64,000 nt of DNA from Actinomycetota bacterium. Its GTDB lineage: Bacteria > Actinomycetota > Thermoleophilia > RBG-16-64-13. Location of the stretch: positions 40,244 through 104,243 of the forward strand of contig JAAYJE010000038.1 in NCBI GenBank assembly GCA_012523095.1, written 5' to 3'. Positions within the stretch are counted from its first letter, which is position 1. Each line of letters begins with the position of its first letter. This document shows positions 13,010 through 39,177 of this stretch, piece by piece. Under the pieces are notes generated by a model. The model saw only the letters and a list, made by a program, of their open reading frames with translations. It ran no database searches and was not told the DNA's origin. A program made the translations under genes and the position numbers.

Positions 13010-13849
13010 TCAGTCGAACGGCTCCAGCACGATGCCGCCTAGATCGACGTCGGTATGCGTGAACACCTCGATGATCATCGACGCGTATCCGTCGCACTCG
13101 ATGTTCACACGGTAGTCCTTGTTCTTCTCCAAGCCGTCGAACTCGAAGTCCCCATAGTTGTCTGTGTGGGTCTCGAGCCTGATCCCCTCTCCCTCGAGAG
13201 TGACCCACACTCCTTCGGCGCACTCGTCAGGGACGTCACGCCGGATGACCTCACCGACCACGAAGCGTTTGGGGATGCCGACGTACTTGACCAGCGGAGA
13301 GGTATTGTACTCGGGATGAAGCGCCTCCGTATCGAGGGTCGCAACCAGCTTCGATATCTCGCTGTTCGGGTCGTCCAGGTCGCCGAAAACGAGAGCGCCG
13401 GTCGGACAGGCTTCTACGCACCGGGGTTGCTTCTCCCCCGCATCCAGCATGTGCGCACACAGGGTACATTTCTGGGGGATATCCAGTTCGGCGTTCCAGA
13501 AGACCACCCGGTAGGGACAAGCGTTCACTACCGCCTTCTGCCCCTTGGCCCTCACCGGGTCGATCATGACGACGCCGTCGTCGCGCCGGTATACGGCGTC
13601 GTCCAGGGCCACGGCGATACAAGGCGCCTCTTCGCAATGTAGGCACGGAATCGGCAGGTAGTCCACTTTAGGTTTGGGATAACTCCCGCGCTCGATCTCC
13701 TTGACCTGCATCCAGAACTGCCCCTCGAGAGGTTGGGGAGCCGAATAAGAGCCGTAGTCGTTGCCATAGTACTCGTCGCGGCACGCCAAGAAGCAGTTGT
13801 GGCAGCCACTGCACTTGGTCACGTCTATAAGCAAGCTAAGCCGCGCCAT
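13010..13849 (-). CDS. Molybdoenzyme small (beta) subunit of the pyrogallol-phloroglucinol transhydroxylase family, copy 1: three [4Fe-4S] motifs plus C-terminal beta-sandwich domain
   Basis: CSGCHNCFLAC, PCLHCEEAPC, CPYRVV and CTLCAH...CVEACPTGA Cys clusters. C-terminal ..NYGDFEFDGLEKNKDYRVNIECDGY...VDLGGIVL resembles the Pelobacter BthL C-domain. GGAGGG RBS inside the alpha gene end, 3-nt gap. Confidence 0.8.
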   Translation of the reverse strand: MARLSLLIDVTKCSGCHNCFLACRDEYYGNDYGSYSAPQPLEGQFWMQVKEIERGSYPKPKVDYLPIPCLHCEEAPCIAVALDDAVYRRDDGVVMIDPVRAKGQKAVVNACPYRVVFWNAELDIPQKCTLCAHMLDAGEKQPRCVEACPTGALVFGDLDDPNSEISKLVATLDTEALHPEYNTSPLVKYVGIPKRFVVGEVIRRDVPDECAEGVWVTLEGEGIRLETHTDNYGDFEFDGLEKNKDYRVNIECDGYASMIIEVFTHTDVDLGGIVLEPFD

Positions 13850-13852
13850 CTC

Positions 13853-16501: not shown

Positions 16502-17362
16502 ATGGTCCATTTGCAAGGCATGCGCTCGCCTGGAAGAGCGGCCCCGATCGACGGGAGAGATATGGCCGCGACGACAGCATCGCGAGATACCGATCCTTTC
16601 TCGGTCAGAGCGCTGGCCCGAGGCCTCTCCATTCTATGCCTTTTTGACGTGGACCACAGAGAGTGGACCATCGACGAGATGGTGGAGCGGACCGGGCTGG
16701 TTCGCATGACGGCCTACCGGATGGTGCGGACTCTGGAGTCCATGGCCTTCCTGGTGCGGGATTCCGCGACCAATCGCTACCGGCTCGGGCCGGCCATGTT
16801 GGCGCTCTGCTACGTCGCCGCCGATCAGTCGGAGTTCATCGCGGCGGCCCGACCTTTTCTCGAATCCCTCGTGGAGCAGACGGGAGAATCGGTCACTCTG
16901 GCCGTGGAGGTCGACGGGTTCCCCGTGTGTGTGGACATCATCAACACCACCCGTCCCTTCAAGCGCCAAACGGCCCCCGGCCGCATCCTCGGTGACATCG
17001 CGACGGTCCACGGAAAGATCTTCACCGCCTTCAAGTCGCCGGAGGAAAGAGAAGCGCTTCTCGCTCGGCCCCGCGCCAGGCGGACACCTCAGACCGTGAC
17101 CGACCGGGAGGTCATCCTGGCGGAGCTCGACCGGGTAGTCAAGGACGGCGTAGCCTACGATCTCGAAGGGTACTACCAGGGTCTGTGCGCGGTGGGCGCT
17201 CCGGTACGCGACCAGTTCGGAGCGGTCACGGCCTCAATCTCCGTGGTGGCTCCTGCGGGCCGCTTCGGTCCCGCCGAGAGCGCCGCTTTCGCGGAGGCCG
17301 TCACGGAGGCGGCCGGCGCCTTCTCCGCCTATCTGGGGTGGACCCCCCGAGCATCTACTTAG
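16502..17362 (+). CDS. IclR family transcriptional regulator
   Basis: N-terminal wHTH (..SVRALARGLSILCLFD...WTIDEMVERTGLVRMTAYRMVRTLESMAFL..) and C-terminal IclR effector domain. The start codon is uncertain; later Met at 16520 or 16562 are possible. Confidence 0.75.
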   Translation: MVHLQGMRSPGRAAPIDGRDMAATTASRDTDPFSVRALARGLSILCLFDVDHREWTIDEMVERTGLVRMTAYRMVRTLESMAFLVRDSATNRYRLGPAMLALCYVAADQSEFIAAARPFLESLVEQTGESVTLAVEVDGFPVCVDIINTTRPFKRQTAPGRILGDIATVHGKIFTAFKSPEEREALLARPRARRTPQTVTDREVILAELDRVVKDGVAYDLEGYYQGLCAVGAPVRDQFGAVTASISVVAPAGRFGPAESAAFAEAVTEAAGAFSAYLGWTPRAST

Positions 17363-17488: not shown

Positions 17489-20140
17489 ATGGCCAAAGGG
17501 GAACGCGCAAAGGTCGACGTGAGTGTCGACAAAACAACGATCAAGAACCTCGCGATGGGGGGCCTTTTGGGAGGAGGCGGCGAGTGCTTCGTGGATGTCA
17601 AAGATGGGAAAGCGATCCGTATCAGACCCTTCAAATACGACTGGAAGTGCGACTACGACTCGCTCAGACCGTGGAAGATCGAGCGTAACGGCGAGACGCT
17701 GCAGCCGCTGCCCAAGGCCTTGCCGGCCCCGTTCTCTCTCGCGTACAAGAAGAGGACCTTTTCCCCCAACCGTATCAAGTTCCCTTTGAAGCGGGTGGAC
17801 TGGGACCCGAATGGAGCACCCGGGTCCACCGGGCCCGGCGGCCGCAACACCCAGAACCGTGGCAAGAGCAAGTTCGTGAGGATCTCGTGGGACGAAGCCA
17901 TTGACCTTGTCGCCTCGGAGGTCAAGCGCGTCCATAAGGAATACGGCCCGCTCGCCATCCTGGCGCAGGGTGACGGCCACGGAGAGTGCAAGACCATCCA
18001 CACACCGCACGGCCATCAGGCCCGCCTGCTCGATATGATGGGGGGCTTCACGCAGCAGGTGCGCAACCCCGACAGCTGGGAGGGCTGGTACTGGGGCGCG
18101 AAGCACGTGTGGGGGCAGGGCTTCCAAGGCATGATGTCACCGGCGGCCAACCTCACCAAGGACATCTCCGAACACTCCACCATGGTCCTCAAATGGGGCT
18201 GCGACGAAGAGACCACGCCCTGGGGTTTCACCGGCCAGTATGCTACCCGCATCTCGCAGTTCTGGACGCGGGCCGGCATCAAGCAGGTGTATATCTGCCC
18301 CGACCTCAACTACGCCGCCGCCGTCCACGCCGACAAATGGATCCCGGTGCTCCCTAACACAGACGCCGCGCTCCAGCTGGCCATCATCTACGTGTGGCTG
18401 ACCGAGGACACCTGGGACAGAGAGTACGTCGAGACGCACGCGGTAGGCATGGACAAGGTGGCCGCCTACGTGCTGGGCGAGGACCAGGAGGGTATCCCCA
18501 AGACGCCTGAATGGGCCTCGAAGAGGTGCGGCGTGCCGGAGTGGACCATCAAAGCCCTGGCCCGCCAGTTCGCCAAGAACACCACATCCATCATCCACTA
18601 TTTCGGCGGCTCGGCTTTCCGGGGTCCATACTCACATGAGCCCGGCCGTCTGGAGTGCATCCTTCTCGGCATGCAGGGGCTCGGCAGACCAGGCGTTCAC
18701 CAGTGCCAGATGACGTACTTCGGTATGCCCCGCGCGGAGGGGTTGGGCAGCATCCGTTTCTTCAACCCTGAGTTGCCCGAGCGGCTCACGAAGCCCTGCT
18801 GGACCACGGTGCATTCGTGGGGTCCACAGCTCATCCCCAAGACACTCATCCAGGACGCCATCCTCAAACCACCCCTGGTATTCCACGGCGCCGGCGGCCA
18901 GGAGAGCCCGACCGAGGAGCAGTTCGACCGCTACACTTATCCCATCGCGAAGGAAAAGGGCGGCGTCCCCATCCACATGATCTGGACCGACACGCCCTGC
19001 CGCATCACCTGCTGGAACCACGGCAACTGGACCATCGAAGCTTTCAAGGATCCCAGCATAGAGTGTGTGGTCGCACAGCACCCGTGGATGGAGAACGAAT
19101 GCCTCTACGCCGACATCGTGTTACCGGCCAACACCACCCTCGAGGTGGAGGACATCGTCACCACCACCCGGCAGGGACCTCACTTCGCAAGCGTCTCCAT
19201 CCAGGAGCAGTCCATTCTGCCGATCGGCGAGTCGAAGAGCGACTACGAGATCGTGGCCGCCATCGCTGAAGAGCTGGGCTACGGCGAAGAGTTCACTGGG
19301 GACATGAGCACGTACGATCTCCAGAAGCTCGTGTTCGACAGCATGCACCTGGACAAGCTCACCACGTGGGAGGACTTCTACGAGAAGAAGACCTACGTGT
19401 ACAAGACGGCTCCCGACTGGGAGGACGACCCGCCCGGCTTGCGCAAGTTCTACGAGGATCCCAAGAACAACCCGCTCCCGACTCCGAGCGGCCTTCTGGA
19501 GTTCTATTCCGCTCGACTGGCCGAGCACTTCCCTGACGATAAGGAGCGGCCGCCGTTACCGAAGTGGATCGAGAAGGGCGTCACTCACGACGAAGCCCTG
19601 TCGAGCGAACGGGCGGCCATGTTCCCGCTGCTTCTGATCTCCAACCATCCGCGCTGGCGCACACACGCCCAGGGTGACGACAACAGCTGGGCCCGGGAGA
19701 CCCCTACCGGCAAGGTGCTGGGCTTCGACGGCTACAAGTACGAGCCTATCTGGATCAACCCTGTTGATGCTGATGAGCGTGGCATCAACGACGGCGACGT
19801 GGTCAAGATCTTCAACGAGCGTGGCGTCGTACTCGTCGGCGCCCGCGTCTGGGAGCGGATCAAACCCGGCGTGGTTTATGTAGACCACGGCGCCCGGCAT
19901 GACCCGCTGGTGCCGGGCAAGGTATGCCGCGGAGGCGCCATCAACACTATCGCCCCCAATGGGATCACCTCCAAGAACGCCGTCGGCCAGGCCACAAGTG
20001 GTTACCTGGTCGACGTGCAGAAGGTGAAGAACGAGGAATGGGAGGAGTGGCGTAGGGACCATCCCGAAGCCTTCGCACGGGTCTACGACCCGGGTGCCGG
20101 TTTACGCTTCGACGCATGGATCGAAGGAGGCGACAAATGA
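17489..20140 (+). CDS. Molybdopterin-dependent large (alpha) subunit of the transhydroxylase family, copy 2
   Basis: 883 aa with no Cys4 N-motif and no Tat signal. It shares NGAPGSTGPGGRN.QNRG, PDSWEGWYWG, GIPKTPEWA, VLPANTTLEVEDI and SDYEIVAAIAEELG blocks with copy 1. Confidence 0.8.
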   Translation: MAKGERAKVDVSVDKTTIKNLAMGGLLGGGGECFVDVKDGKAIRIRPFKYDWKCDYDSLRPWKIERNGETLQPLPKALPAPFSLAYKKRTFSPNRIKFPLKRVDWDPNGAPGSTGPGGRNTQNRGKSKFVRISWDEAIDLVASEVKRVHKEYGPLAILAQGDGHGECKTIHTPHGHQARLLDMMGGFTQQVRNPDSWEGWYWGAKHVWGQGFQGMMSPAANLTKDISEHSTMVLKWGCDEETTPWGFTGQYATRISQFWTRAGIKQVYICPDLNYAAAVHADKWIPVLPNTDAALQLAIIYVWLTEDTWDREYVETHAVGMDKVAAYVLGEDQEGIPKTPEWASKRCGVPEWTIKALARQFAKNTTSIIHYFGGSAFRGPYSHEPGRLECILLGMQGLGRPGVHQCQMTYFGMPRAEGLGSIRFFNPELPERLTKPCWTTVHSWGPQLIPKTLIQDAILKPPLVFHGAGGQESPTEEQFDRYTYPIAKEKGGVPIHMIWTDTPCRITCWNHGNWTIEAFKDPSIECVVAQHPWMENECLYADIVLPANTTLEVEDIVTTTRQGPHFASVSIQEQSILPIGESKSDYEIVAAIAEELGYGEEFTGDMSTYDLQKLVFDSMHLDKLTTWEDFYEKKTYVYKTAPDWEDDPPGLRKFYEDPKNNPLPTPSGLLEFYSARLAEHFPDDKERPPLPKWIEKGVTHDEALSSERAAMFPLLLISNHPRWRTHAQGDDNSWARETPTGKVLGFDGYKYEPIWINPVDADERGINDGDVVKIFNERGVVLVGARVWERIKPGVVYVDHGARHDPLVPGKVCRGGAINTIAPNGITSKNAVGQATSGYLVDVQKVKNEEWEEWRRDHPEAFARVYDPGAGLRFDAWIEGGDK

Positions 20141-20955
20141 AGGTCTTCGTCATCGATGTCGGCCTTTGTGTAGGCTGCTACGCCTGCCAGTTCGTCTGCA
20201 AGGACGAGCACGTGGGCAACGACTGGTCGCCGATCGCCAAGCCCCAGCCCGACACCGGCCAGTTCTGGATGCGGCTGGACGAACACATCCGCGGCACGGT
20301 CCCCAAGGTGGAGATGCATTACGTGCCGAACCCCTGCATGCACTGTGACGAGGCCCCCTGCATCCCGCCCTGCCCCATCGAGGGAGCCATCTATAAGCGC
20401 GACGACGGGCTGGTGATCATCGACTCGATGAAGTGTACGGGGTGTAGGTTATGTGTCGACGCCTGCCCCTACGACGCCATCTACTTCAACGACGACTTGA
20501 ATCTGGCCCAGAAGTGTACAGGCTGCGCCCATCTCCTCGACGGCGGTGAATGGATGGTCCCGCGCTGCGTCGACGCCTGTCCCACTGAGGCCATCAAGTT
20601 CGGTGAAGAGAGCGAGTTCGCTGCCGAGATAGCGAAGGCCGAAGTGCTGAAGCCCGAGCTGGGCCACAAACCGCGCGTCTATTACCTCAACATCCCGAAG
20701 AAGTTCATCGCGGGCACCGTATACGATCCGGTTGCTAAGGAGATCATCGAGGGCGCCACCTGCACGCTCACGAACGGCAACGACAAGGCCCTCACCGCCA
20801 CGACCGACGGCTTCGGCGACTTCTGGTTCCGGGGGCTCCCCGACGACGCCTCTTACAAGCTGAGCGTCTCGGCCCCGGGCTTCAGAACCAAGACGATGGA
20901 GGACATCCGCACCGAGAAAGACGTCAATCTAGGCGACATAGCGCTTGCCAAGTAA
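20137..20955 (+). CDS. Transhydroxylase-family small (beta) FeS subunit, copy 2
   Basis: ATG at 20137 overlaps the alpha stop (ATGA) with GGAGG 6 nt upstream; the track ORF starts earlier at 20116. Motifs MKVFVIDVGLCVGCYACQFVC, PCMHCDEAPC, CTGCRLCVDACPY, CTGCAH...CVDACPTEA, plus C-terminal GFGDFWFRGL...VNLGDIAL domain. Confidence 0.8.
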   Translation: MKVFVIDVGLCVGCYACQFVCKDEHVGNDWSPIAKPQPDTGQFWMRLDEHIRGTVPKVEMHYVPNPCMHCDEAPCIPPCPIEGAIYKRDDGLVIIDSMKCTGCRLCVDACPYDAIYFNDDLNLAQKCTGCAHLLDGGEWMVPRCVDACPTEAIKFGEESEFAAEIAKAEVLKPELGHKPRVYYLNIPKKFIAGTVYDPVAKEIIEGATCTLTNGNDKALTATTDGFGDFWFRGLPDDASYKLSVSAPGFRTKTMEDIRTEKDVNLGDIALAK

Positions 20956-22417: not shown

Positions 22418-23233
22418 CTACCCCCAGCTTGAGCCGTATTGCCCGATCGCCGCCGCAAACGCGTCGATGAAGTGGACGCCTCCGTCGACGAGTATGGTGG
22501 ATCCGGTCATGAAGTTGGAGTCCTCACCGGCCAGGAATACGAACAACCCGGCGATATCAGTCGGAGTCGCGATGCGGTGCAGAGGCACGTGGCCGGCCAT
22601 GGTCGCGAAGACACCGTCCATGTCGGTGTTGAGGACCTCGGCCATCGGTTCGAAGTTGCTTTCAAGCATAGCCGTGCGCACCGGCCCCGGGCAGACCACG
22701 TTGCATCGCACGTTGTTCTTGCCGTAGTCGAGAGCCACCTGCTTGGTCAGATGGATCAGGCCGGCCTTGGTGGTGCAGTAGGCGGGTCCTCCGGGTACGG
22801 CCACCACTCCGGCCAGCGACGCCACGTTGATGATCGAGCCGCCTCCAGCCTTGGCCATCTCAGGGATGGCGGCCTTCATCATCAGGAAGGGGCCCGTCAG
22901 GTTCACCTCAAGCATCTGGCGCCAAGCCGCCGGGTCCATGTCGACAACCCCGGCGTTCATCTCGATAGCAGCGTTGTTGACCAAGATGTCGAGCCGCCCC
23001 GTGAAGCCGAGCGCCGCCTCGACCATCTTGCCGGCGTTGCCGTCCTCCGTCACGTCTCCGCAGAAGACCGTGACGCTGTCCGTGGGCAGTAACGCGGCCA
23101 CCTCGTCCAGCTTCTCTCTACGCCGACCCGTGATGACGATCTTGGCGCCTTCCTCCACGAAACGCTTCGCGACCCCCGCGCCGATGCCGGTGCCGCCGCC
23201 GGTGATGAGTGCGACCTTGTTTTCTAGTTGCAT
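22418..23233 (-). CDS. SDR family oxidoreductase
   Basis: NKVALITGGGTGIGAGVA, NNAA, YCTTKAG. ATG at 23233 with AAGGGGA RBS, 10 nt after the upstream MBL gene stop. Confidence 0.75.
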   Translation of the reverse strand: MQLENKVALITGGGTGIGAGVAKRFVEEGAKIVITGRRREKLDEVAALLPTDSVTVFCGDVTEDGNAGKMVEAALGFTGRLDILVNNAAIEMNAGVVDMDPAAWRQMLEVNLTGPFLMMKAAIPEMAKAGGGSIINVASLAGVVAVPGGPAYCTTKAGLIHLTKQVALDYGKNNVRCNVVCPGPVRTAMLESNFEPMAEVLNTDMDGVFATMAGHVPLHRIATPTDIAGLFVFLAGEDSNFMTGSTILVDGGVHFIDAFAAAIGQYGSSWG

Positions 23234-23243
23234 TGCCGTCCCC

Positions 23244-24170
23244 TTACTCTCTGGGCGGGTCACCGTCGAACCCGCCGTTTGGATTCAAGAATATCTTCCC
23301 AGGTTCGCCGGGAAGAGGGGTGAGCCAATCGGGGCTGCTGTGGGGAAAGAGCAACCTCGCCTGCCAGTGGATGGCAAAATCCTCCGCTTTCACGTCCCCA
23401 TAGTACCTCGCCATGCCCTCGACCAGGTCCGCCCCGGTCTTGGCGATGTTATACATCTCCTCGTAGACATCCAGGTAGCGCACCGACCAGTCGACGCAGT
23501 CGGTATAGGTGCGAGAGGTGTCCTCCTGCACATCCTCCAAGATGCGTAACTTGGCTTCGTCGCAGTGACCTGGGATGACGATGCGGGGGTCGAATTCCAG
23601 GAGCTTCTTGATAGAGGCCCTCCACTTGACCCGTCGCTCCACGTTGCTTTCGATGGGCCATAGGTGACAGTCGTGGAAGGCCACATCAGTCGCACACAGG
23701 ACCCGGATCGACGGCGCCCAGACCACGGAGTTGTTGACGCTGTCTCCCTCCCAGCCGTCCGACACCAGCAGTTCTTCGCCCTCCAGTTCGAGACGAGGCT
23801 CGTGCATGGGCATAGGGATGATGGTCTTCGGTGGAATATCCGGCCCAAAACGATCTATTGCCCACATATCCACCTTGTCGCTCGAGGTGAACACCACATC
23901 TCTCACCACGCTCGGCAGCGCCACGATCTTGGCGTGCGGGAACGCATGCGCAAGGACGCTCAGCCCGAAATGGTGGTCGGGATGGAAGTGAGAGACATAT
24001 ATATGGGTGAGGTTCTTCCTCATCGGGATGATCTCCGCGATCATCCTGTGGGTGTCGCTCAGCAATTGGGACGCGTCGACAAGGACGGCGTCGCGCTCCC
24101 CATAGAACAACGTGGAGTTGCTGTTGAAACCCAGGTAGCTGTGAAGAAACACGCGGTATTTCAGCGTCAC
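23244..24170 (-). CDS. MBL-fold metallo-hydrolase
   Basis: HxHxDH motif YVSHFHPDHHFG with downstream His/Asp ligands. GTG start with GGAAGGGG RBS. Confidence 0.7.
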   Translation of the reverse strand: MTLKYRVFLHSYLGFNSNSTLFYGERDAVLVDASQLLSDTHRMIAEIIPMRKNLTHIYVSHFHPDHHFGLSVLAHAFPHAKIVALPSVVRDVVFTSSDKVDMWAIDRFGPDIPPKTIIPMPMHEPRLELEGEELLVSDGWEGDSVNNSVVWAPSIRVLCATDVAFHDCHLWPIESNVERRVKWRASIKKLLEFDPRIVIPGHCDEAKLRILEDVQEDTSRTYTDCVDWSVRYLDVYEEMYNIAKTGADLVEGMARYYGDVKAEDFAIHWQARLLFPHSSPDWLTPLPGEPGKIFLNPNGGFDGDPPRE

Positions 24171-24321
24171 ATCAACCCCTTCCTATCGACAGGCTGCAAA
24201 TCTTCTCCAGACCACGAGTACTCCTTGAAGATGTCCAGCATGATACCGGTTGCCTTGAGCGCATGCTCCCTTGGAATCGCAGCCAAGAGCCTTCCCGACG
24301 CAGGTGAAGGACGAGTCGCTG

Positions 24322-25155
24322 CTACGTCGGGTCCAAGTCCCGTCGCGAGTAACCCAGAAAAGCCGAGAGGTCGGTGGCCGTGGATTTGATCGCCTCGGCG
24401 TACTCGCGCTTCTCGTCGGGCCCAAACCGTCCTGCGGGTACGATGAGGGAGATGGCGGCGATCACTTTGCCGAGTTGGTCGCGCACCGGGGCTGCGACGG
24501 CACAGGTGCCTACATTGCGCTCCTCGATGTCAAACGCCACTTCCTCGCGCGCCACCCGTCCCAACTCCTTGGCCAGGACCTTCGGGTCGGTGATGGTGTG
24601 GGGAGTGAGTCGAGGATGATCGCCGGCCAAGATCTCAGCCTTTTCGGCTTCGGTCTTGAAGGCCGCGAAGATCTTACCGTTTGCGCTGGCCGTATCGCCG
24701 ATGATGCGGCCCACGGCGACCTCCCGTCTGAGCGGCCGCGGCGTATCCACCATATCGACGCTCACCGCCACCCCGTCCAACTCGATGGCCAGCGTAGCCG
24801 CTTCGCCCGTTTGCTCGGTCAGGTCCACTAGGTAAGGCCGCACGATCGCCGCGAGCTCCGAGTAGCCGCCCGACAAGTACATGGTGGCCAGCAACGCAGG
24901 ACCCAGGTGATACCGGTTGGTCACGGGATCCCGTACCAAATAGCGCGAAGACTCCATGGTCCGGATCATCCGGTAGGCCGTCATCCTTGGAAGGCCGGCG
25001 CCCTCAGCGATCTCGTCCAACGTCCATTCTCGGTTCTCAGCGTCGAACAGGCCAAGGATAGTAAGACCCTTCGCCAGGGCCCTCACCAAGAAGGCCCCGT
25101 CCGCACCTTCCGCGGACCCCGCCCGCTGTTCAGGTTTTGCAGTCGATTTGGCCAC
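24322..25155 (-). CDS. IclR family transcriptional regulator (second copy)
   Basis: ..FLVRALAKGLTILGLFDAENREWTLDEIAEGAGLPRMTAYRMIRTMESSRYL.. and IclR C-domain. Paralog of 16502-17362. GTG start. Confidence 0.75.
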   Translation of the reverse strand: MAKSTAKPEQRAGSAEGADGAFLVRALAKGLTILGLFDAENREWTLDEIAEGAGLPRMTAYRMIRTMESSRYLVRDPVTNRYHLGPALLATMYLSGGYSELAAIVRPYLVDLTEQTGEAATLAIELDGVAVSVDMVDTPRPLRREVAVGRIIGDTASANGKIFAAFKTEAEKAEILAGDHPRLTPHTITDPKVLAKELGRVAREEVAFDIEERNVGTCAVAAPVRDQLGKVIAAISLIVPAGRFGPDEKREYAEAIKSTATDLSAFLGYSRRDLDPT

Positions 25156-25201
25156 TCTGGCTCACACCCCTTCAGGCTTCACCACTCACACCGAAGCTCT
25201 C

Positions 25202-25990
25202 TCACACAAAGGCCATAGTCCCGCCGTCAGGATACAAGATGGTCCCGGTCACGAAGTCCGACGCGGCCGAGGCCAAGAAGACGGTCGGGCCGATGAGGTC
25301 GGGCACTGTGCCCATGCGGCCCATGGGCACATTCACAAGCATCTTCTCATAGCGGTCGGCTTCTCTGCGAACACGCTCCTCGGTCATGGGTGTGACGGTG
25401 ATTATCGGGGCGATGGCGTTCACCATGACCTTCTTCGAAGCCAATTCAACCGCCAACTGCTTCGTGAGCATGTCAACCGCGCCCTTGCTGGCGCAGTAAG
25501 CGAGATTGCCGCCCAGTGCGGCGCGCGCCCCACGTATCGAAGACAGATTGATGATCTTACCACCCCCGTGCTCAACCATGTGCTTCGCGAAGTGCTTGCA
25601 GCAGAGCATCACACCGCGGACGTTCACGCTGAAAAGATTGTCCCAATCTTCGAGAGGGAACTCCGTGGCCGGCGCCTTCACATTGAAACCCTGCGCGTTG
25701 ACGCCCACATGAATGCGGCCCATGTCTTCGACGGCGGCCGCGATTATCTCTTCGACGTTCTTCTCCTGGTCTTGGCCCGTCACCACCGGGTAGGTGAACA
25801 CCCTCTGCCCCGTGGTCGCGTGGATCTCTTCCACCGCGCTGTCGATGGCGTCCAGGTTGATGTCGGCGATACCCACCCGAGCGCCGAACACGACTAAACC
25901 CTGCGCCAACCCGCGCCCGATCCCGCCGGCGCCGCCCACCACCACGACATTCTTGCCTTTCAGGGAGAACAGGTCAGGCGATATTTCCAT
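25202..25990 (-). CDS. SDR family oxidoreductase; candidate phloroglucinol reductase-type enzyme
   Basis: GKNVVVVGGAGGIGRG, NAQG, YCASKGAV. First gene upstream of the IclR regulator and last of the HBD-like / BKACE / SDR operon. Confidence 0.7.
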   Translation of the reverse strand: MEISPDLFSLKGKNVVVVGGAGGIGRGLAQGLVVFGARVGIADINLDAIDSAVEEIHATTGQRVFTYPVVTGQDQEKNVEEIIAAAVEDMGRIHVGVNAQGFNVKAPATEFPLEDWDNLFSVNVRGVMLCCKHFAKHMVEHGGGKIINLSSIRGARAALGGNLAYCASKGAVDMLTKQLAVELASKKVMVNAIAPIITVTPMTEERVRREADRYEKMLVNVPMGRMGTVPDLIGPTVFLASAASDFVTGTILYPDGGTMAFV

Positions 25991-26067
25991 GGCCCTGCCA
26001 CCATCCTTTTTCCGTCAGATCTCGTTGCGAGGTTCCTGATCTTGTGAACTGTTGCATGCCGCTCACG

Positions 26068-26922
26068 CTACCGCTTCACAATGCCCAGCATCTGCCGGAC
26101 CTCGTCAGGGGTGGTGGGCTCTATGTTGAGCTCTCGAGCGATGCGGACCGACCGCTCCACCAACTGAGCGTTACTCTTCGCCAGCACGCCCCGCGAGTAG
26201 TAGATGTTGTCCTCGAGCCCCACTCGGATGGCGCCGCCCCTGATCATCGCCATGGTGGTGATAGGGAGTTGCGCGGCCGACGTCGCACAGCAGTTGAAGT
26301 AGCAGCCTTCGGGCAGGAATTCGATCATCGAATTGAGACTCTCGGGCGTCGCCTCCACCGCACCTTGGTACATCATGCCGAGTACGATGTTGACGTAGTA
26401 CGGCGGTTTGATGAGTTCCTTCTTGATGAGGTTGCTCACGTCCCGATACATGCTCTGCGAGTAGCACTCCATCTCGGGCTTGATGTCGAGTTCCCGCATC
26501 TTGGTCGCCCAAGCCTCGATGTCCTTGGTGAGGTTCGAGAATGGAGTGCCGGCGAATTCGCCCGTCTGCCGCATGAGCGTCCCCATGTTGAGCGAGGCCG
26601 ATTCAGGTTTGGCGTCAAGGCAGCGCACCCGCTCCTCGATGGTGAGGTTGGCTCCCCCGCCGGTAGAGAACTGGATGATGATGTCGCCGCATCTGCCCCG
26701 GACCGCCGCCAGTATCTCTTCGAACTTCTCTTTGGTGCCGGTAGGCTTGCCCTTCTCATCGCGGGCGTGGATGTGCACTATGGAGGCCCCGGCGTTGTAG
26801 CATTCAAGCGCAGCCTGGGCAATCTCCGCCGGCTGTTCGGGGACGTTAGGGTTCATATCTTTGGTGACCATCGCCCCGTTCAGCGAAGCGGTGACGATGA
26901 CCTTGCCGGCGGGCAGTTTCAT
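26068..26922 (-). CDS. BKACE family (beta-keto acid cleavage enzyme, DUF849 TIM barrel) protein; candidate triacetate acetoacetate-lyase type
   Basis: KVIVTASLNGAMVTKDMNPNVPEQPAEIAQAALECYNAGASIVHIHARD and later GGGANLTIEER, RVGLEDNIYY blocks are typical of 3-keto-5-aminohexanoate-cleavage-enzyme-like proteins. AGGAG RBS. Confidence 0.75.
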   Translation of the reverse strand: MKLPAGKVIVTASLNGAMVTKDMNPNVPEQPAEIAQAALECYNAGASIVHIHARDEKGKPTGTKEKFEEILAAVRGRCGDIIIQFSTGGGANLTIEERVRCLDAKPESASLNMGTLMRQTGEFAGTPFSNLTKDIEAWATKMRELDIKPEMECYSQSMYRDVSNLIKKELIKPPYYVNIVLGMMYQGAVEATPESLNSMIEFLPEGCYFNCCATSAAQLPITTMAMIRGGAIRVGLEDNIYYSRGVLAKSNAQLVERSVRIARELNIEPTTPDEVRQMLGIVKR

Positions 26923-26930
26923 GGTTGCTC

Positions 26931-27890
26931 CTATATCTTCTCGTAGATGAGGTCTTTGACGTCCTCGAAGACCTTGATGAGTGCGGCGTCGCGTTCTCGT
27001 AGCACCTGCTCCAGGGGACGATCGGTGTAGTCGAAGAAACCCTTGCCCGTCTTCACGCCCAGGTCGCCCGCCTCCATGAGTTCTTTCAGACTCTTGGGCT
27101 GATTGTCGATGGGCGCCTCTACGAAGTCAGGGTTCTGTAGGTTCCCATAGCTGAGGTCGATGCCCGTGAAGTCGTATCGCTGGACGAATCCAAGCACCAT
27201 AGCCCGAGGAATGATGCTGGCCTTGACGGCGAGATCGAGTTGCTCGGCGGTCATGTACCCGTTGTCGAGGAGGAAGAAGATCTCTCGTCCTATGATGCGC
27301 AGAAAGCGGTTGATGCAGAATCCGGGAACGAACTTCTCGAGCACCGTGGGGACCCTCTCCACCTTCTTCAGGAATCCCACCACGAAATCGACAGTGGTCT
27401 GCGCCGTCTCCGGCCCCTTGACCACTTCGACGAGCGGCACTATGTGCGGAGGGGCGAACCAGTGGGCTATCAAGGTCCGGGGCAGACGCTTGACCGGCAT
27501 GATCTCGTAGATGTTGAGGTAGGAGGTATTGCTGGTGATTATGGTCCGCTCGGGACAGACGGCGTCGAGAGCCTCGTAGAGCTCCTTCTTCGCGTCCATA
27601 TTCTCGGCGATGGTCTCTATGACGAAATCGGCGTTCTCGCCCGCCTCTTCCACCGATTGGGTCGTCCTGACGCGGGCCAACACCCTCGGCACCGCGCTCT
27701 CAGCAAGGAGCTCGTTCTCGACGAAGGTCGCGAGATTTGCCTGGGCCACCCTCATCGCCTTGTCGAGAGTCTCAGCCTTGCGCGAATACATCGTCACGTC
27801 GTATCCAGCGGTGGCGAACACCTGAGCAAGGCCGGGACCCATAGTGCCGGCTCCAAAGATGGCAACTTCCTTCACGTCAGCCAGTTCCAC
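26931..27890 (-). CDS. 3-hydroxyacyl-CoA dehydrogenase family protein (HBD-like); candidate 3-hydroxy-5-oxohexanoate dehydrogenase type
   Basis: VKEVAIFGAGTMGPGLAQVFATAGYDV Rossmann start and HCDH C-domain. About 50 % identical by eye to 575-1516. GTG start with GGAGG RBS. Its stop overlaps the BKACE RBS. Confidence 0.75.
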   Translation of the reverse strand: MELADVKEVAIFGAGTMGPGLAQVFATAGYDVTMYSRKAETLDKAMRVAQANLATFVENELLAESAVPRVLARVRTTQSVEEAGENADFVIETIAENMDAKKELYEALDAVCPERTIITSNTSYLNIYEIMPVKRLPRTLIAHWFAPPHIVPLVEVVKGPETAQTTVDFVVGFLKKVERVPTVLEKFVPGFCINRFLRIIGREIFFLLDNGYMTAEQLDLAVKASIIPRAMVLGFVQRYDFTGIDLSYGNLQNPDFVEAPIDNQPKSLKELMEAGDLGVKTGKGFFDYTDRPLEQVLRERDAALIKVFEDVKDLIYEKI

Positions 27891-28094
27891 GCGAGTCCTC
27901 CCTGCCCTCGTCCTTCTCCAAGCTAAGTATGATCGGTCCTGGTATCAGTATACCGCGATACATAGATGAAATATCGAGTTTGGGAGATATGAGCGGCATC
28001 TCAGCCGTCTCTGGAGATCCCGCCGGCCCGGGGCATGCGGGCGTGGGTCCGTTGAAGACGCCGCCCATCTTGAAAATCGACCAGCCCTAGTCTA

Positions 28095-28133
28095 CGATAT
28101 CGCTGATATTACTCAATAATATCGCGATATCGT
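28095..28133. promoter_or_regulatory. 39-bp conserved operator-like motif, copy B, in the divergent promoter region between the phloroglucinol-type operon and the third molybdoenzyme operon
   Basis: acgatatcgctgatattactcaataatatcgcgatatcg is the reverse complement partner of 16454-16492. It contains the inverted repeat CGATATCGC...GCGATATCG. Confidence 0.45.
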
Positions 28134-28269
28134 AACTGTCTTTGTTTAGGCCTTTGCCGGTGTCGGCGATCTCAAGCTGGAGAAACGACGTCCGCACCGG
28201 CGACAATGAAAGGGGTGCCCTGATGGCAGCATCGAAGGCTTCTTGGCACAGCGAAGGGAGAACCGCATC

Positions 28270-29037
28270 ATGAGATGGGGGATGGTCATCAACCTCGCGA
28301 AGTGCACCCGGTGCCACGCATGCGTCGCCGCCTGCAGAATAGAGCATTTCCTGCCGCTCAGGATCACCTGGCCCAGACTGATCGCACTGGAGGTGGACGA
28401 CGGCGTCACGGTGGACGTCTCGACCTACCCGGTGCGCTGCAACCAGTGCCAAGAGGCGCCCTGCGTGGAGGTCTGCCCGACTGAGGCTTCATATAAGAGA
28501 GAGGACGGGATCGTCGCCATCGACTCCGACAAGTGCTTCGGATGCCGGTACTGCGTCATCGCGTGCCCTTATCAGAACCGCACGTATCTTTCCAGGAGAA
28601 GGAACGTCAACTACTTCCCCGAGCACGCCAAGACGAGCTTCGAGAAGAAGGGCAAGAAGCTCTATCCACACGTGGTGGGAACCACCGAGAAGTGCAACTT
28701 CTGTATGGAGCGTATCGACGCAGGCATGGCGAAGGGTCTGAGGCCGGGCATCGACCGCGAAGCAACCCCAGCCTGCGTGAACATCTGCCAGGCCAGGGCT
28801 CTGACTTTCGGCGATTTGGACGACCCTAACAGCAACGTTTCCGAACTGATCCGCGAGAAGAACGGGTTTGTGCTTCACGCTGAGTACGGCACGGAGCCTT
28901 CCGTCTATTACATCGATTACAAGATCGGTAGAGCTCCCTCGAACAAGGCTCCCATCGAGGCTCAGACGGGCAGCCACATACAGCACCTGAGCACTGTCTA
29001 CGGCCCGTCCAAAGAAAAACTCGCCAAGAAGTACTAG
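28270..29037 (+). CDS. 4Fe-4S ferredoxin-type electron-transfer (beta) subunit of a DMSO-reductase-family oxidoreductase (PsrB/TtrB/DmsB-like); no Tat signal
   Basis: Four Cys clusters: CTRCHACVAAC, CNQCQEAPCVEVCP, CFGCRYCVIACP, CNFC...C. ATG at 28270 with AAGGGAG RBS; the track start at 28243 is rejected. Confidence 0.8.
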   Translation: MRWGMVINLAKCTRCHACVAACRIEHFLPLRITWPRLIALEVDDGVTVDVSTYPVRCNQCQEAPCVEVCPTEASYKREDGIVAIDSDKCFGCRYCVIACPYQNRTYLSRRRNVNYFPEHAKTSFEKKGKKLYPHVVGTTEKCNFCMERIDAGMAKGLRPGIDREATPACVNICQARALTFGDLDDPNSNVSELIREKNGFVLHAEYGTEPSVYYIDYKIGRAPSNKAPIEAQTGSHIQHLSTVYGPSKEKLAKKY

Positions 29038-29055
29038 ACAGGGAGCGAAGAGAGC

Positions 29056-30012
29056 ATGAACGCAAGAACCTCACGTCAATGGATGGTCACCCACGAGTGG
29101 ATGGTCAAACCCATGGGCCAGGTCGAGTGGATCCAAGGGAAGGGTCTCCTGGTGTGGCTGGCGGAGGTCTTCTCCGCCCTAGGAACCGGTCTATACCTGG
29201 TGGCGCTCTTCTTTACCCAGTCGCATCCGCTCACCGCCTTCTGGGCCGGGCTCTTCGGCTGGATAGGGATCGCCATCTTCAAATTACCCTTACACTTCCT
29301 CTACCTCGGGAAGCCCTGGCGCTTCTGGAGAGCTTTTCCGCCGGTAAGTGGCGCATGGAGGACCTCGTGGTTCGCACGGGGCATCGTCTTCACAATGATC
29401 TTTTTGGCCTGCGGCGCCGTGCAATTGATAATGATCGGGCTGATGGGCTACGGCAAAGGTAACGTCAGCATAGAGGTGATCAACTGGATCTTCATGGTCT
29501 TGGCCGGCCTCACCGGCGTGGTCACCGCCATCTACTGCGGTTTCGCGATGAGTTACTGCAAGAGCGTGCCATTCTGGAACACCGGCCTGCTGCCGTTCGT
29601 GTTCCTTATCATGGGCGTCGCCGACGGTCTGGCACTGATCATGGGTGTCGCCCTCGGCACCGGCGAACAGCTCATCGCCACTGCGGAAGCGGCCACACGC
29701 ATCTTGCTCATCGTCAACGCGCTGCTGATCATCATGTACCTGGTGAATGCGAACTACCAGTCGAGCACGGCTGAGCTGTCGGCGCGAGAACTCGTGCGTG
29801 GACACATGGCCTGGGTCTTCTGGCTGGGGATCGTGGTGTTCGGCATCGTCATCCCCTTCGTGATCGCCGTGATCGGAGCCGCTACTCATGTGCCGACCGG
29901 GTTGCTGATCTTTGCCGTTGTCAGTCACACCATCGGAGCGTTCTCGCTGAAGTACGGCGTGCTCAAGGTAGGCATCTACAGGCCACTTCTTCCCAAGGCG
30001 CAGGCCTACTAG
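29056..30012 (+). CDS. NrfD/PsrC-type polytopic membrane anchor subunit
   Basis: 318 aa with eight or more hydrophobic helices. The position between the FeS and catalytic subunits matches Ttr/Srd-type B-C-A operons. Confidence 0.7.
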   Translation: MNARTSRQWMVTHEWMVKPMGQVEWIQGKGLLVWLAEVFSALGTGLYLVALFFTQSHPLTAFWAGLFGWIGIAIFKLPLHFLYLGKPWRFWRAFPPVSGAWRTSWFARGIVFTMIFLACGAVQLIMIGLMGYGKGNVSIEVINWIFMVLAGLTGVVTAIYCGFAMSYCKSVPFWNTGLLPFVFLIMGVADGLALIMGVALGTGEQLIATAEAATRILLIVNALLIIMYLVNANYQSSTAELSARELVRGHMAWVFWLGIVVFGIVIPFVIAVIGAATHVPTGLLIFAVVSHTIGAFSLKYGVLKVGIYRPLLPKAQAY

Positions 30013-30041
30013 GGCGCCCGGGTTAGGTTGAGGAGACACTG

Positions 30042-32282
30042 ATGGCAAGAGAAGTCATATATTCAACGTGTAAGAGCTGCCACGGCGGCTGCGGCGTCAA
30101 AGTCACCAAGGAAGACGGGGTCGTCATCCACATCGAGGGCAACCCCGACTCTCTAACTGCGGGCACCATGTGCTCGAAAGGTCTCTCGAGCATCCAGCAT
30201 ATCGATAACCCTTACCGCCTCAAGTACCCCATGAAACAGGTGGGCAAGAAGGGTCACGGCAAGTGGAAGAGGATCTCCTGGGACGAGGCGCTGGACACCA
30301 TCGCCGAGAAGATGAAGGAGGCGATCAAGGATCCGGGGCCTCACAGCATCGCCATCTCCCAAGGCACGGGGCGCGGTTACAACCGCTACACTATGCGCAT
30401 GGCGCGCTCCCTGGGCACCGGAAACGCGATCACGCCCGGTTATGTATGCCACAGCCCCCGCCTGGGCCTTTACGCCCTCGTGACCGGCTATGGCCGCCTC
30501 TACTGCGACTACCACGGCTGGGGCGGCGAGTTCCCCAAGACCCAGATCATGTGGGCGAAGCAGCTGGAGATATCGAGCGCCGACTCCGAGATGTGCTACT
30601 GGTACATGAACTCCCTCGACTACGTCAAGAACCTCATCATCATCGACCCGCGGGCCAGCGCCTACGCCACCCGCGCAGGTCTCTGGATCCAACCCCGGCC
30701 GGGCACCGACTGCGCTCTGGCCCTGGGCATGGGCCACGTCATCATCGAGGAAGAGTTGTGGGACAAGGACTTCGTTGAGAACTGGACCTTCGGCTTCGAC
30801 GACTACCGAGAATGCGTCAAGGAGTGGACGCCGGAGAAGGTCTCCGACGTCTGCTGGATACCCAAGGAACAGGTCATCGAGGCCGCCCGCATGTGGGCGA
30901 TCGACACGCCCGGCTGCATCCAGGTGGGTAGCTCGCTCGAGCGACAGGCCAACTGCGGTTACACGATCAGAGCAATCACCTGTCTCATGGGACTGGCCGG
31001 CAACATCGAACGGCCGGGTAGCATGATCAGCTGGGTACTGCCGGACACCGGCCTCATCGAAGACTTCAACCTCGAGCTCCCCATCACCGATGAGATGAAG
31101 GCCAAGATCATCGGCGGCGACCGGTTCAAGATGGGCGCAACCCGTACCTGCAACCCCGACACCATGGTCAAGGCCATCAACTCCGGCAATGCCCCCATCC
31201 GAGTCTGGTTCAGCGTGGGCGGGCAGCAGATCTTGCACATGGCCAACACCAAGGAAGTCGTGGAGGCCATCGAGAAGGTCGAATTCATGGCTCACGCCGA
31301 TCAGTTCATGGGTCCCATGGCCGAAGCCGCAGACATAGTGCTGCCGGCCGCCCACTGGCTGGAGCTGGACGACGTCTACGATATGCACCCCCGTTTCATG
31401 ATCGAAGCCCACAACAAGGTGGTCGACCCGCCGGGCGAGGCCAGATCCGACGCATGGATCTTCAACGAGATAGGTAAGAGGGTCGTGCCCGACAAGTGGT
31501 GGGACAGCGTGGATGACATGCTCGACTACCAGCTCAGACGCGGTGAGTCCAAAGACGGCGGCCCACTCAAGTGGAACGAGTTCGCCGAGAAACTGGTCAG
31601 CGGATGTTGGGGCCCCGACCAGGTGTACTACAAGTACAAGACCGACTTCTGGAAAGAGGGCGGCGGTTTCCCGACTCCGTCGGGCAAGTTCGAGTTCCGA
31701 TCCCAGCACCTGGAATCGCTGGGGTACGATGGGCTGCCGGTTTACAATGAGCCCGGAGAGAGCCCTTACTCGACTCCCGAGCTGTTCAAGGAATACCCTA
31801 TCGTGATGAGTAGCGGATTCCGGCAACCCTGGTACTTCCTCGGGCAGTATCGCAACATCCCCTGGCTCCGGAGTTTCATGGAGTTTCCAACCGCCCAGCT
31901 CCATCCGGAGACCGCTAAGCTGTACGATGTGGAAGACGGCGACATCATCTGGATCGAATCCCCCAGGGGCAGGATCCGACAGAAGCTCCGTTGCTTCCCA
32001 GGCATCAAGAAGGGTGTCCTGATGGCGACGGCCAACTGCTTCTATCCGGAGGAACCACCCGAAGGCTACCACGGCTTGTTCATCTCCAACCCGAACGTAC
32101 TCACCAGCAACGACCACCTCGACCCCATGTACGGGTCACCCGACCTCACCTGCCTGATCTGCAAGGTGTACAAGGCCAAGGATGAGGAACTGACCGAGGA
32201 GGTCTTCCGGAGCGAGGAGTACGGGTTCGTGCCGGAGAGCATCGGAGCGACCGAACCCAAGGTGAAGAAGGACGACGACTAG
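30042..32282 (+). CDS. molybdopterin (bis-MGD) oxidoreductase catalytic subunit with N-terminal [4Fe-4S] Cys motif; no twin-arginine signal
   Basis: N-terminus MAREVIYSTCKSCHGGCGVKV...C (CxxCxxxC...C MopB FeS-0 motif). 746 aa with molybdopterin-binding and C-terminal MopB_CT-like regions. GAGGAG RBS. Confidence 0.85.
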   Translation: MAREVIYSTCKSCHGGCGVKVTKEDGVVIHIEGNPDSLTAGTMCSKGLSSIQHIDNPYRLKYPMKQVGKKGHGKWKRISWDEALDTIAEKMKEAIKDPGPHSIAISQGTGRGYNRYTMRMARSLGTGNAITPGYVCHSPRLGLYALVTGYGRLYCDYHGWGGEFPKTQIMWAKQLEISSADSEMCYWYMNSLDYVKNLIIIDPRASAYATRAGLWIQPRPGTDCALALGMGHVIIEEELWDKDFVENWTFGFDDYRECVKEWTPEKVSDVCWIPKEQVIEAARMWAIDTPGCIQVGSSLERQANCGYTIRAITCLMGLAGNIERPGSMISWVLPDTGLIEDFNLELPITDEMKAKIIGGDRFKMGATRTCNPDTMVKAINSGNAPIRVWFSVGGQQILHMANTKEVVEAIEKVEFMAHADQFMGPMAEAADIVLPAAHWLELDDVYDMHPRFMIEAHNKVVDPPGEARSDAWIFNEIGKRVVPDKWWDSVDDMLDYQLRRGESKDGGPLKWNEFAEKLVSGCWGPDQVYYKYKTDFWKEGGGFPTPSGKFEFRSQHLESLGYDGLPVYNEPGESPYSTPELFKEYPIVMSSGFRQPWYFLGQYRNIPWLRSFMEFPTAQLHPETAKLYDVEDGDIIWIESPRGRIRQKLRCFPGIKKGVLMATANCFYPEEPPEGYHGLFISNPNVLTSNDHLDPMYGSPDLTCLICKVYKAKDEELTEEVFRSEEYGFVPESIGATEPKVKKDDD

Positions 32283-32432: not shown

Positions 32433-32738
32433 CTACTTCCTACCGTACTCCGTTGCGAAGAACATATCGTGGAACAGGATAGGCTTCGAGGGGTCGTTGA
32501 TCTTCTTGAAGTTGAGCGGGCAATGGTAAAGACCGGCAGGCACCGAGACGAACGTGGCTTGGGTGAACGTGAACTTCTCCATATGGTCTGCATCTTCCCC
32601 CAGCCAAAGCTCCACTTCGCCGCCCAGATCCATCATATTGGTGATGTCCCCCCCCACCAGCAGGATGAACTGATCGAAGTCGTGGGCGTGGCTTTCGGAG
32701 ATCATCTCAAAGGGCTCCGAGATGGGCCACCAGGTCAT
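32433..32738 (-). CDS. small cupin-fold protein of unknown function
   Basis: ~100 aa with His/Glu-rich beta-barrel-like pattern (..SHAHDFDQFILLVGGD...GEVELWLGED...VPAGLYHCP..). ATG at 32738 preferred over the TTG track start at 32786. Weak call. Confidence 0.4.
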   Translation of the reverse strand: MTWWPISEPFEMISESHAHDFDQFILLVGGDITNMMDLGGEVELWLGEDADHMEKFTFTQATFVSVPAGLYHCPLNFKKINDPSKPILFHDMFFATEYGRK

Positions 32739-36891: not shown

Positions 36892-36902
36892 ATCTCCTCC
36901 GC

Positions 36903-39080: not shown

Positions 39081-39177
39081 GCAGTTACTCACACCCCTTT
39101 GGCTCCTCGCGGATCCCTCGTCGAGCCGGCCCTTTCGCACGCCCACGGCGATGCTAGGTTGTTTGAATGTCCATATG

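Follow-up and report, generated by a model that had tools for sequence, protein, structure and literature searches.

Within a stretch of 64,000 nucleotides from an Actinomycetota bacterium of the Thermoleophilia (contig JAAYJE010000038.1, positions 40,244 to 104,243; hereafter the window), a compact operon, B-C-A, encodes a four-cluster ferredoxin (B), a membrane anchor (C) and a molybdenum (Mo) or tungsten (W) catalytic subunit (A). The complex is probably (at a rough probability of 0.55) a cytoplasm-facing, quinone-coupled aryl hydroxyl oxidoreductase that uses Mo or W. A role as hydroxybenzene oxidoreductase fits the gene neighborhoods strongly; what we infer is that quinone is used, which class of substrate is converted and in which direction, and whether the metal is Mo or W.

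The operon occupies 28270-32282 of the plus strand and comprises three open reading frames (ORFs) in the order B-C-A, separated by gaps of only 18 nt (B/C) and 29 nt (C/A). Subunit B (28270..29037, 255 aa from ATG 28270, Pfam Fer4_11) is a four-cluster [4Fe-4S] ferredoxin of the NrfC/PsrB/DsrO/ArrB type, C (29056..30012, Pfam NrfD, fold match PsrC) is a membrane anchor of the NrfD/PsrC family with a putative quinone site, and A (30042..32282, Pfam MopB domains, acetylene hydratase as best PDB match) is a 746-aa Mo/W-bis-molybdopterin guanine dinucleotide (bis-MGD) catalytic subunit with an N-terminal [4Fe-4S] motif. The original prediction had described the operon as a four-cluster iron-sulfur (FeS) subunit, an NrfD/PsrC-type subunit and a 746-aa bis-MGD subunit with an N-terminal Cys4 motif, and the ORFs, with all their coordinates, the Pfam matches and the cysteine counts bear this out. 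The ATG at 28270 fits the start MRWGMVI[ND]L.KC, conserved throughout the family, and is preceded by a Shine-Dalgarno sequence, AGGGAG, at 28255-28260; a TTG at 28243 is also possible as a start of B and was set aside in favor of the family-wide conserved ATG. The reading frame of A is closed upstream by a stop codon, beyond which 30042 is the earliest possible start. The genes can be taken as real because the same arrangement recurs in related genomes: among related loci (the best 80 of 223 relatives from a scan of one genome per species), practically all whose upstream sequence is long enough show the order B-C-A, and identity to the window proteins is 67-97% for A, 64-94% for B and 36-81% for C. 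Rfam scans of the 5′ region detect no riboswitch, the Moco riboswitch included, and a scan with promoter and terminator consensus sequences gives nothing exceeding the shuffled background.

Subunit A begins with MAREVIYSTCKSCHGGCG and matches the three MopB domains of Pfam (Molybdop_Fe4S4, Molybdopterin and Molydop_binding). Its best match in the PDB is acetylene hydratase (AH, 2e7z, 285 bits, E 7e-84), followed by FdhF (174 bits) and PsrA (156 bits, E 1e-44), and it stays under the cut-off of every curated model: PhsA (251 bits, cut-off 694), TtrA (63, 1750), ArrA (107, 1600) and FdhA (252, 666). By these matches A is placed in the clade around AH. An identity as a Ttr- or Psr-type reductase, against which the original prediction was to be judged, is thus not supported, as A fails both the TtrA and PhsA cut-offs and lies closest to AH instead; of the Ttr/Srd-like character noted earlier the gene order stands, but the resemblance goes no further. 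C10, C13, C17 and C44, the FeS ligands, correspond in the alignment to those of the [4Fe-4S] cluster in AH, K46 aligns with the conserved lysine between cluster and pterin, and C136 aligns with the W-ligand Cys141, a cysteine that is kept in 135 of 136 outgroup representatives. Asp13 of AH, which we take to be the catalytic residue and essential for catalysis, is His14 in 40/40 family members, and an aspartate at this position occurs in only 6/136 outgroup representatives. Ile142 of AH is likewise replaced in the family, by His137, within the motif C-H-S-P-R. Because both positions are histidines, A is not an acetylene hydratase. An AlphaFold2 (AF2) model of A, built on a 16-sequence alignment, reached a mean predicted local distance difference test (pLDDT) of 49.9; it is unfit for a fold search or for inspection of the active site and was not used.

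Subunit B contains 16 cysteines in four groups, sufficient for four clusters, and matches Pfam Fer4_11 and related families. Its best NCBIfam matches are DsrO, ArrB, QrcC, NrfC and TtrB, all under cut-off (DsrO, 181 bits, cut-off 200), and its best PDB matches are ArrB (6cz7_B, E 7e-35) and PsrB (2vpw_B). The conserved start, MRWGMVINLAKC, leaves no room for a signal peptide. To cover alternative starts, the N-terminus was measured as the longest run of residues that any in-frame start could give ahead of the first Cys motif; over 78 related loci its median is 11 aa in B and 10 aa in A. Longer open frames upstream of the Cys motif are found in a few high-GC genomes only and are not conserved. 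The same script recognizes the positive controls, E. coli NrfC (SRRQFL) and DmsA (SRRGLV), each motif being followed by a hydrophobic stretch. Since there is no room for a signal before the Cys motif across the loci, a signal for twin-arginine translocation (Tat) is absent rather than overlooked. What had been claimed for A and B of the window alone, namely that neither carries a Tat signal, therefore extends to the whole family, and a search for an upstream start that would supply A with one finds none, an in-frame stop preceding 30042.

Subunit C scores 59.6 bits against Pfam NrfD (cut-off 25.8). Its AF2 model (predicted TM-score, pTM, 0.77) has 8 transmembrane (TM) helices, and its best fold match among solved structures is PsrC (2vpw_C, probability 1.0, TMt 0.59, 284 aligned columns); a phmmer search of C against PDB sequences gives nothing meaningful, and PsrC is recovered by fold comparison only. 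The Pfam match, the 8-helix PsrC fold and the adjoining four-cluster FeS partner together identify C as a member of the NrfD/PsrC family. B lies directly upstream of C, a pairing kept in about 78 loci. The distribution of lysine and arginine over the loops is strongly biased: in C of the window, the terminal side (N-terminus, loops 2-3, 4-5 and 6-7, C-terminus) holds 14 of these residues and the opposite loops hold 1, and among aligned homologues the medians are 14 and 0, with the same bias in 62/62. E. coli NrfD, for which a cruder, hydropathy-based predictor was used, has the reverse bias (3 vs 6). All strongly conserved extramembrane segments of C (RQWMVTHEWM, FKLPLH..YLGKP.RFWRAFPP, CKSVPFWNTGLLP, YLVNANYQS and HTIGAFSLKYGVLKVGIYRP) lie on the Lys/Arg-rich side, while the loops of the opposite side are variable and contain insertions and deletions. 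In the single-chain model it is these same segments that have low confidence, as would be the case for a docking surface. In PsrC, the periplasmic side (P-side) holds both termini together with the quinone site and the FeS partner (PMC8076601). Judged by its inverted charge bias, C departs from this orientation, which is the canonical one for NrfD proteins, so the complex should face the cytoplasm. C is accordingly predicted to be inserted N-in/C-in, the reverse of PsrC, with its conserved face meeting B and A in the cytoplasm. This prediction is strengthened by the absence of signals on B and A, which is independent of it and agrees with it. A review of the NrfD family expects inversion for SoeC alone of the complexes that it covers (PMC8076601). 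The original prediction had called such an arrangement unusual among NrfD-anchored complexes; nearly all of these do face the periplasm, but SoeABC provides a cytoplasm-facing precedent (PMC8076601).

A protein search with A returns hundreds of homologues of 65-100% identity, all from metagenomes or metagenome-assembled genomes (MAGs) and carrying generic names only (‘molybdopterin-dependent oxidoreductase’, ‘anaerobic selenocysteine-containing dehydrogenase’). The family has sharp limits: identity is 65-97% across five phyla, and among sequences clustered at 50% identity it is isolated, with one relative at 51% and the rest at ≤40%. Its members occur in Actinomycetota (Gaiellales, Thermoleophilia), Desulfobacterota including Desulfatiglans, Acidobacteriota, SAR324 and Chloroflexota (mostly Dehalococcoidales), and in one Gaiellales MAG subunit A is 97% identical to that of the window, which therefore probably stems from this order. 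The family is found in many soil and sediment anaerobes, usually adjoining genes of transhydroxylases (TH), which rearrange trihydroxybenzenes of plant origin. In Thermoleophilia-like loci (TH1 - IclR - TH2 - B-C-A), a TH2-type pair abuts B-C-A on the same strand in 11/12. Loci of Desulfobacterota, SAR324 and Proteobacteria-labelled genomes have B-C-A followed by TH2-type alpha/beta genes, with downstream gaps from 42 nt, and the pair abuts in 15/16, and in Acidobacteriota (3/4) TH pairs flank B-C-A. A TH2-type pair on the same strand therefore abuts B-C-A in 29/32 loci of these three lineages. Chloroflexota loci have no abutting pair (0/22); in one of them a TH alpha gene lies ~6 kb upstream. 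In one Desulfobacteraceae MAG, B-C-A-THalpha-THbeta form a five-gene island amid unrelated housekeeping genes. Gaiellales-like loci, the window included, place B-C-A head-to-head with a phloroglucinol-pathway-like operon (short-chain dehydrogenase/reductase (SDR), BKACE, 3-hydroxyacyl dehydrogenase) and are followed downstream by a major facilitator superfamily (MFS) transporter, IorAB and an ADP-forming acyl-CoA synthetase.

The window itself encodes two transhydroxylases. TH1 (13010..16402, minus strand, large subunit 13853-16402) is a likely orthologue of the alpha/beta pyrogallol-phloroglucinol transhydroxylase, with 868 bits against PgtL of Pelobacter acidigallici (4v4c_A). TH2 (17489..20955, plus strand, subunits 17489-20140 and 20116-20955) is a divergent, pyrogallol-hydroxytransferase-like alpha/beta pair with 403 bits against the same protein; its alpha subunit matches Pfam AhtL-like_1st and its beta subunit Fer4_11 and CarboxypepD_reg. 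TH1 keeps H144, Y152, D174, S175 and Y404 of PgtL. TH2 keeps H144, D174 and S175 (the Ser ligand) and has T152 and P153, and Y404 is without an alignable counterpart; the functional meaning of these residues reportedly comes from a crystal-structure study of 2004. TH2 thus probably has another substrate or co-substrate than TH1. It is this TH2-type paralogue that abuts B-C-A in other phyla.

A putative regulatory element also connects the two sets of genes. The 380-bp divergent region between the phloroglucinol-pathway-like operon and B-C-A holds a palindromic, operator-like element (28093..28134) with perfect 11-nt arms, TACGATATCGC-N20-GCGATATCGTA. Its 18-mer core, TATTACTCAATAATATCG, occurs exactly twice in the window, at 28107-28124 (plus strand) and, as an exact match, at 16462-16479 (minus strand) in the divergent promoter of TH1 and IclR2; the chance expectation for the core in the window is 0, even with three mismatches allowed. 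Compared by eye, the two copies match at 33/41 positions of a 41-bp element. A promoter motif common to B-C-A and the transhydroxylases, and hence one regulon, had been proposed before, and the exact 18-mer, with 0 expected, supports it. IclR2 (16502..17362, plus strand, Pfam HTH_IclR and IclR_C) lies between TH1 and TH2, and a second IclR gene is found at 24322-25155 (minus strand); the two proteins are the obvious candidates to bind the shared operator. The exact core occurs in none of the related loci, and the operator cannot at present be called conserved between genomes.

A mechanism can be proposed from these elements. C, upside-down relative to PsrC, would offer its conserved quinone- and ferredoxin-binding face to the cytoplasm. 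B would dock on C, its four [4Fe-4S] clusters wiring the quinone site to A, which would contain the [4Fe-4S] cluster FS0 and a Cys-ligated bis-MGD Mo or W. The likeliest chemistry is that of an aryl-OH dehydroxylase/hydroxylase: a polyhydroxybenzene would lose or gain one ring hydroxyl in a two-electron step coupled to quinol/quinone. In this way, di- and tetrahydroxybenzenes could enter or leave the trihydroxybenzene pool that TH1 and TH2 would isomerize to phloroglucinol; alternatively, B-C-A could supply or regenerate the tetrahydroxybenzene co-substrate of the transhydroxylases. B-C-A would change the hydroxyl count by one and the transhydroxylases would shuffle the positions. Like SoeABC, for which this is assumed, the enzyme would by itself be electroneutral, given a quinone site on the cytoplasmic side (N-side). 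By a rough estimate, aryl-OH/aryl-H couples lie near the menaquinone potential, and either direction is thermodynamically plausible. The link to quinone is suggested by the membership of C in the NrfD family and by the UbiA, radical-SAM and UbiE genes that follow B-C-A in some lineages.

Several points weigh against this proposal. The positive-inside rule gives a prediction rather than a measurement of topology, even if the bias is unusually clean. NrfD-family proteins are cofactor-free, so that the putative quinone binding by C cannot be read from its sequence. The presumed nearness of A to the catechol dehydroxylases of gut bacteria rests on both being nearest to AH, not on a joint tree, and cluster look-ups of the nearest outgroup proteins, followed toward characterized catechol dehydroxylases, return generic names only. 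A dehydroxylase acting on tetrahydroxybenzene would consume the co-substrate of the transhydroxylases, which leaves the physiological logic unsettled. Finally, 21/22 Chloroflexota loci have no transhydroxylase within 10 kb; the hydroxybenzene link is therefore not universal, and the substrate may vary by lineage.

A different division of labor, the main competing reading, is possible, if doubtful, in which B-C-A is mainly a membrane outlet or inlet for the electrons of TH2, itself a net hydroxylase resembling resorcinol hydroxylase, and A has a second substrate or a minor role. The self-contained five-gene unit in Desulfobacteraceae and the abutting pairs in 29/32 loci of three lineages speak for it, as does the loss from TH2 of Y152, R153 and Y404 of PgtL, which TH1 keeps; this loss suggests a non-canonical pair of substrate and co-substrate. 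We also know of no explained role for the three FeS clusters of the transhydroxylase beta subunit. A passive role of A is unlikely, however, since it is the most conserved of the three proteins (65-97%) and has kept its FeS cluster and Cys ligand, and B-C-A occurs without a nearby TH in most Chloroflexota loci and in the Gaiellales-type arrangement. The extreme form of the same idea is a membrane-bound machine of five subunits, B-C-A plus the TH2-type pair, with hydroxylation by TH2 electronically coupled to dehydroxylation at A. Here, the beta FeS clusters would carry electrons between TH2 alpha, whose Ser-Mo site would hydroxylate, and A, whose Cys-Mo/W site would dehydroxylate, and B and the inverted NrfD subunit would join both to the menaquinone pool. 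Phenol hydroxyls could then be moved, added or removed without free tetrahydroxybenzene as co-substrate, or the co-substrate could be made by the complex. Such a supercomplex, with its putative contact between B-C-A and TH2, is speculative and rather unlikely.

The remaining explanations are improbable. AH is the closest solved relative of A and requires a reduced W(IV) state, which would suit a non-redox hydratase in which B and C are vestigial or merely keep the metal reduced. Such an activity is hardly to be expected when Asp13 of AH is a histidine in all 40 family members examined, Ile142 is a histidine too, and every locus has B and C, conserved and in synteny (64-94% and 36-81% identity). 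An enzyme for an inorganic substrate in the cytoplasm, whether a sulfite:quinone oxidoreductase of the SoeABC type or a Psr/Phs/Ttr/Arr-type enzyme that reduces sulfur compounds or oxyanions, would share the three-subunit design, SoeABC being cytoplasm-facing with a proposed inverted NrfD-like subunit (PMC8076601), and B scores best against the DsrO and ArrB models. Yet A misses the NCBIfam equivalog cut-offs widely and matches AH far better than PsrA, the gene order is B-C-A and not soeABC, the neighbors are genes of aromatic catabolism rather than sulfur genes, and the operator is common to the transhydroxylase promoter, all of which makes this reading improbable. Very improbable is a conventional, periplasm-facing NrfD-anchored reductase with A and B exported through a missed signal or by Tat hitch-hiking, as is known for DmsB and hydrogenase large subunits. 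Tat export is indeed found in E. lenta, for those catechol dehydroxylases that have FeS and anchor subunits (PMC7028382), but A and B have no room for a signal in any of the 78 loci, TH2 alpha has no RR motif, and the bias of C, inverted in 62/62, would place the conserved B-binding face on the wrong side. The aryl hydroxyl oxidoreductase thus remains the preferred assignment for B-C-A, with the transhydroxylases and B-C-A probably partners in one pathway.

The other genes of the window add context. The phloroglucinol-pathway-like operon (22418..27890, minus strand, Pfam and NCBIfam matches) encodes, in order along its strand, a 3-hydroxyacyl dehydrogenase, BKACE, an SDR, an IclR regulator, a metallo-beta-lactamase (MBL)-fold hydrolase and another SDR. 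The corresponding enzymes (the PGR/TfD/TAL cluster) have been defined in Clostridium scatologenes (PMC10470551). The operon lacks a dihydrophloroglucinol cyclohydrolase of the cyclase family as found in C. scatologenes; ring opening may instead fall to a non-orthologous enzyme, the MBL-fold hydrolase (23244-24170, minus strand), which is Vmh-like but under cut-off and has 78-88% conservation among related loci of Actinomycetota. Between TH2 and this operon lies the gene of a methyl-accepting chemotaxis protein (21086-22297, minus strand), present in locus L009 too, which may mediate chemotaxis to phenolic substrates. The convergent ends of the TH2 beta gene and the chemotaxis gene are separated by a perfect 15-nt inverted repeat with a 7-nt loop (20990-21026, AAAGGCCCCCTGCCG / CGGCAGGGGGCCTTT), a likely bidirectional terminator. 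Just past A, a convergent 117-aa ORF (32433-32786, minus strand) has no Pfam or NCBIfam match; two related MAGs (L001, L017) have it at the equivalent place, with 93-94% conservation. Farther downstream are IorAB (indolepyruvate:ferredoxin oxidoreductase) and an ADP-forming acyl-CoA synthetase (34433-39146, minus strand), with 57-85% identity in many Actinomycetota loci where they also lie downstream of B-C-A, a flavodiiron protein (41312-42805, minus strand; ODP beta-lactamase fold plus flavodoxin) typical of oxygen-sensitive organisms, and two tRNA genes (59529-59601 and 63137-63207, both minus strand).

Additional arrangements are found in related genomes. In Dehalococcoidales-type loci (L061-L076), B-C-A runs, with overlapping stop and start codons, into four more genes, which encode a cytochrome b561/FdnI-like membrane protein of 372 aa (L068 12178-13296), a UbiA prenyltransferase (L073 13014-13949), an AhbD/NirJ-like radical SAM/SPASM protein (L063 13914-15122) and a UbiE-like methyltransferase (L069 14357-15046). 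Such an extension is usual among the Chloroflexota. This operon may hold its own supply of haem or quinone and a fourth, di-haem subunit. In L084/L085 (3329-18311), an AthL-like pair and a NarJ/TorD-like chaperone lie upstream of B-C-A, and FixC/FixX-like genes, UbiA, two radical SAM genes and UbiE lie downstream; the latter may serve menaquinone biosynthesis. The neighbors in both groups fit a role in membrane electron transport. L086/L087 (4001-8488) carry a second family, in A-B-C order, with a 966-aa catalytic subunit of the AH clade (P0442, identity to A 30%), an FeS protein for four clusters and an NrfD protein 27% identical to C (E 2e-15). It has no Tat motif, lysine and arginine of its NrfD protein are found where the termini lie, and it is followed by genes for a CCG-domain protein and a further MopB protein. 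Inward-facing, NrfD-anchored enzymes of the AH-like clade may thus be more common than recognized.

Within the library searched, no paper on the B-C-A family was found; a metagenome study of Chloroflexi merely mentions ‘acetylene hydratase-like’ genes beside pyrogallol hydroxytransferases (PMC3971608). The family of each component and an inward-facing, NrfD-anchored precedent, SoeABC, are already known. What appears new is the orthologous family and its architecture within the AH-like clade, together with its conserved partnership with transhydroxylase paralogues. B-C-A would add a second family of cytoplasm-facing molybdoenzymes with an inverted NrfD anchor beside SoeABC, and L086/L087 probably a third. 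It stands beside transhydroxylase paralogues in Actinomycetota, Desulfobacterota, Acidobacteriota and SAR324, and alone in Chloroflexota. When tannins and flavonoids are broken down anaerobically, the route leads through trihydroxybenzenes, a process that matters for how peat and wetlands store carbon (the ‘enzyme latch’ idea) and for the metabolism of polyphenols in the gut. To our knowledge, the source of the tetrahydroxybenzene co-substrate of the transhydroxylases and the reason for their electron-transfer subunit are apparently still open, and B-C-A is a concrete candidate for both. A five-subunit machine, if true, would couple the fermentation of polyphenols with the respiratory chain, and would do so in anaerobes of soil and sediment that belong to at least four phyla. 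For annotators, there is reason to drop the labels polysulfide reductase, NrfD and ‘anaerobic selenocysteine-containing dehydrogenase’ for these genes.

Comparison with characterized enzymes helps to place the complex. PsrC of PsrABC from Thermus thermophilus (2vpw) is the best structural match of C, PsrB is a good match of B, and ttrBCA has the same gene order as B-C-A. The Psr and Ttr complexes are Tat-exported and periplasmic, with the PsrC termini on the P-side, whereas B-C-A has no signal, an inverted bias and an A subunit under the PhsA and TtrA cut-offs. The pyrogallol-phloroglucinol transhydroxylase PgtLS and resorcinol hydroxylase RhLS act on hydroxybenzenes in the cytoplasm and adjoin B-C-A in many genomes. 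They differ from A in belonging to another MopB branch, with a Ser ligand, no FeS cluster in alpha, an AhtL-like N-domain and no membrane subunit. AH of Pelobacter acetylenicus (2e7z) shares with A the N-terminal Cys4 cluster, the Cys metal ligand, the lysine between cluster and pterin and a cytoplasmic location without signal peptide. It is, however, a monomeric, non-redox hydratase, whereas A is always co-encoded with a ferredoxin and a membrane anchor.

The catechol dehydroxylases of gut bacteria (Dadh, Hcdh and Cadh of E. lenta; Dodh, Cldh and Hcdh of Gordonibacter) are bis-MGD enzymes that act on ring hydroxyls and are co-encoded with FeS subunits, beside specific regulators and MFS transporters (PMC7028382, PMC11585353). 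Their nearest characterized relative is reported to be AH (PMC7028382), as it is for A by its top PDB match. Two architectures are known: the E. lenta enzymes are Tat-exported, with a four-cluster subunit and a membrane anchor (~1200 aa), and those of Gordonibacter are soluble, without Tat signal and with a small FeS protein (~770 aa; PMC7028382, PMC11585353). B-C-A differs from both in having no Tat signal yet an NrfD anchor, and its membership of the class is presumptive. In architecture, SoeABC of Allochromatium vinosum and Aquifex aeolicus resembles B-C-A: it has a Mo-bis-pyranopterin guanine dinucleotide (bis-PGD) subunit that holds a [4Fe-4S] cluster, accompanied by a ferredoxin with four clusters and an NrfD-like anchor with 8 TM helices, has no export signals and is proposed to carry its peripheral subunits on the N-side of an inverted anchor (PMC8076601). 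It is set apart by its gene order (A-B-C) and by its context, which is that of sulfur oxidation. B-C-A is thus predicted to share with SoeABC the form of a cytoplasm-facing, three-subunit complex iron-sulfur molybdoenzyme (CISM) with an inverted NrfD-like anchor.

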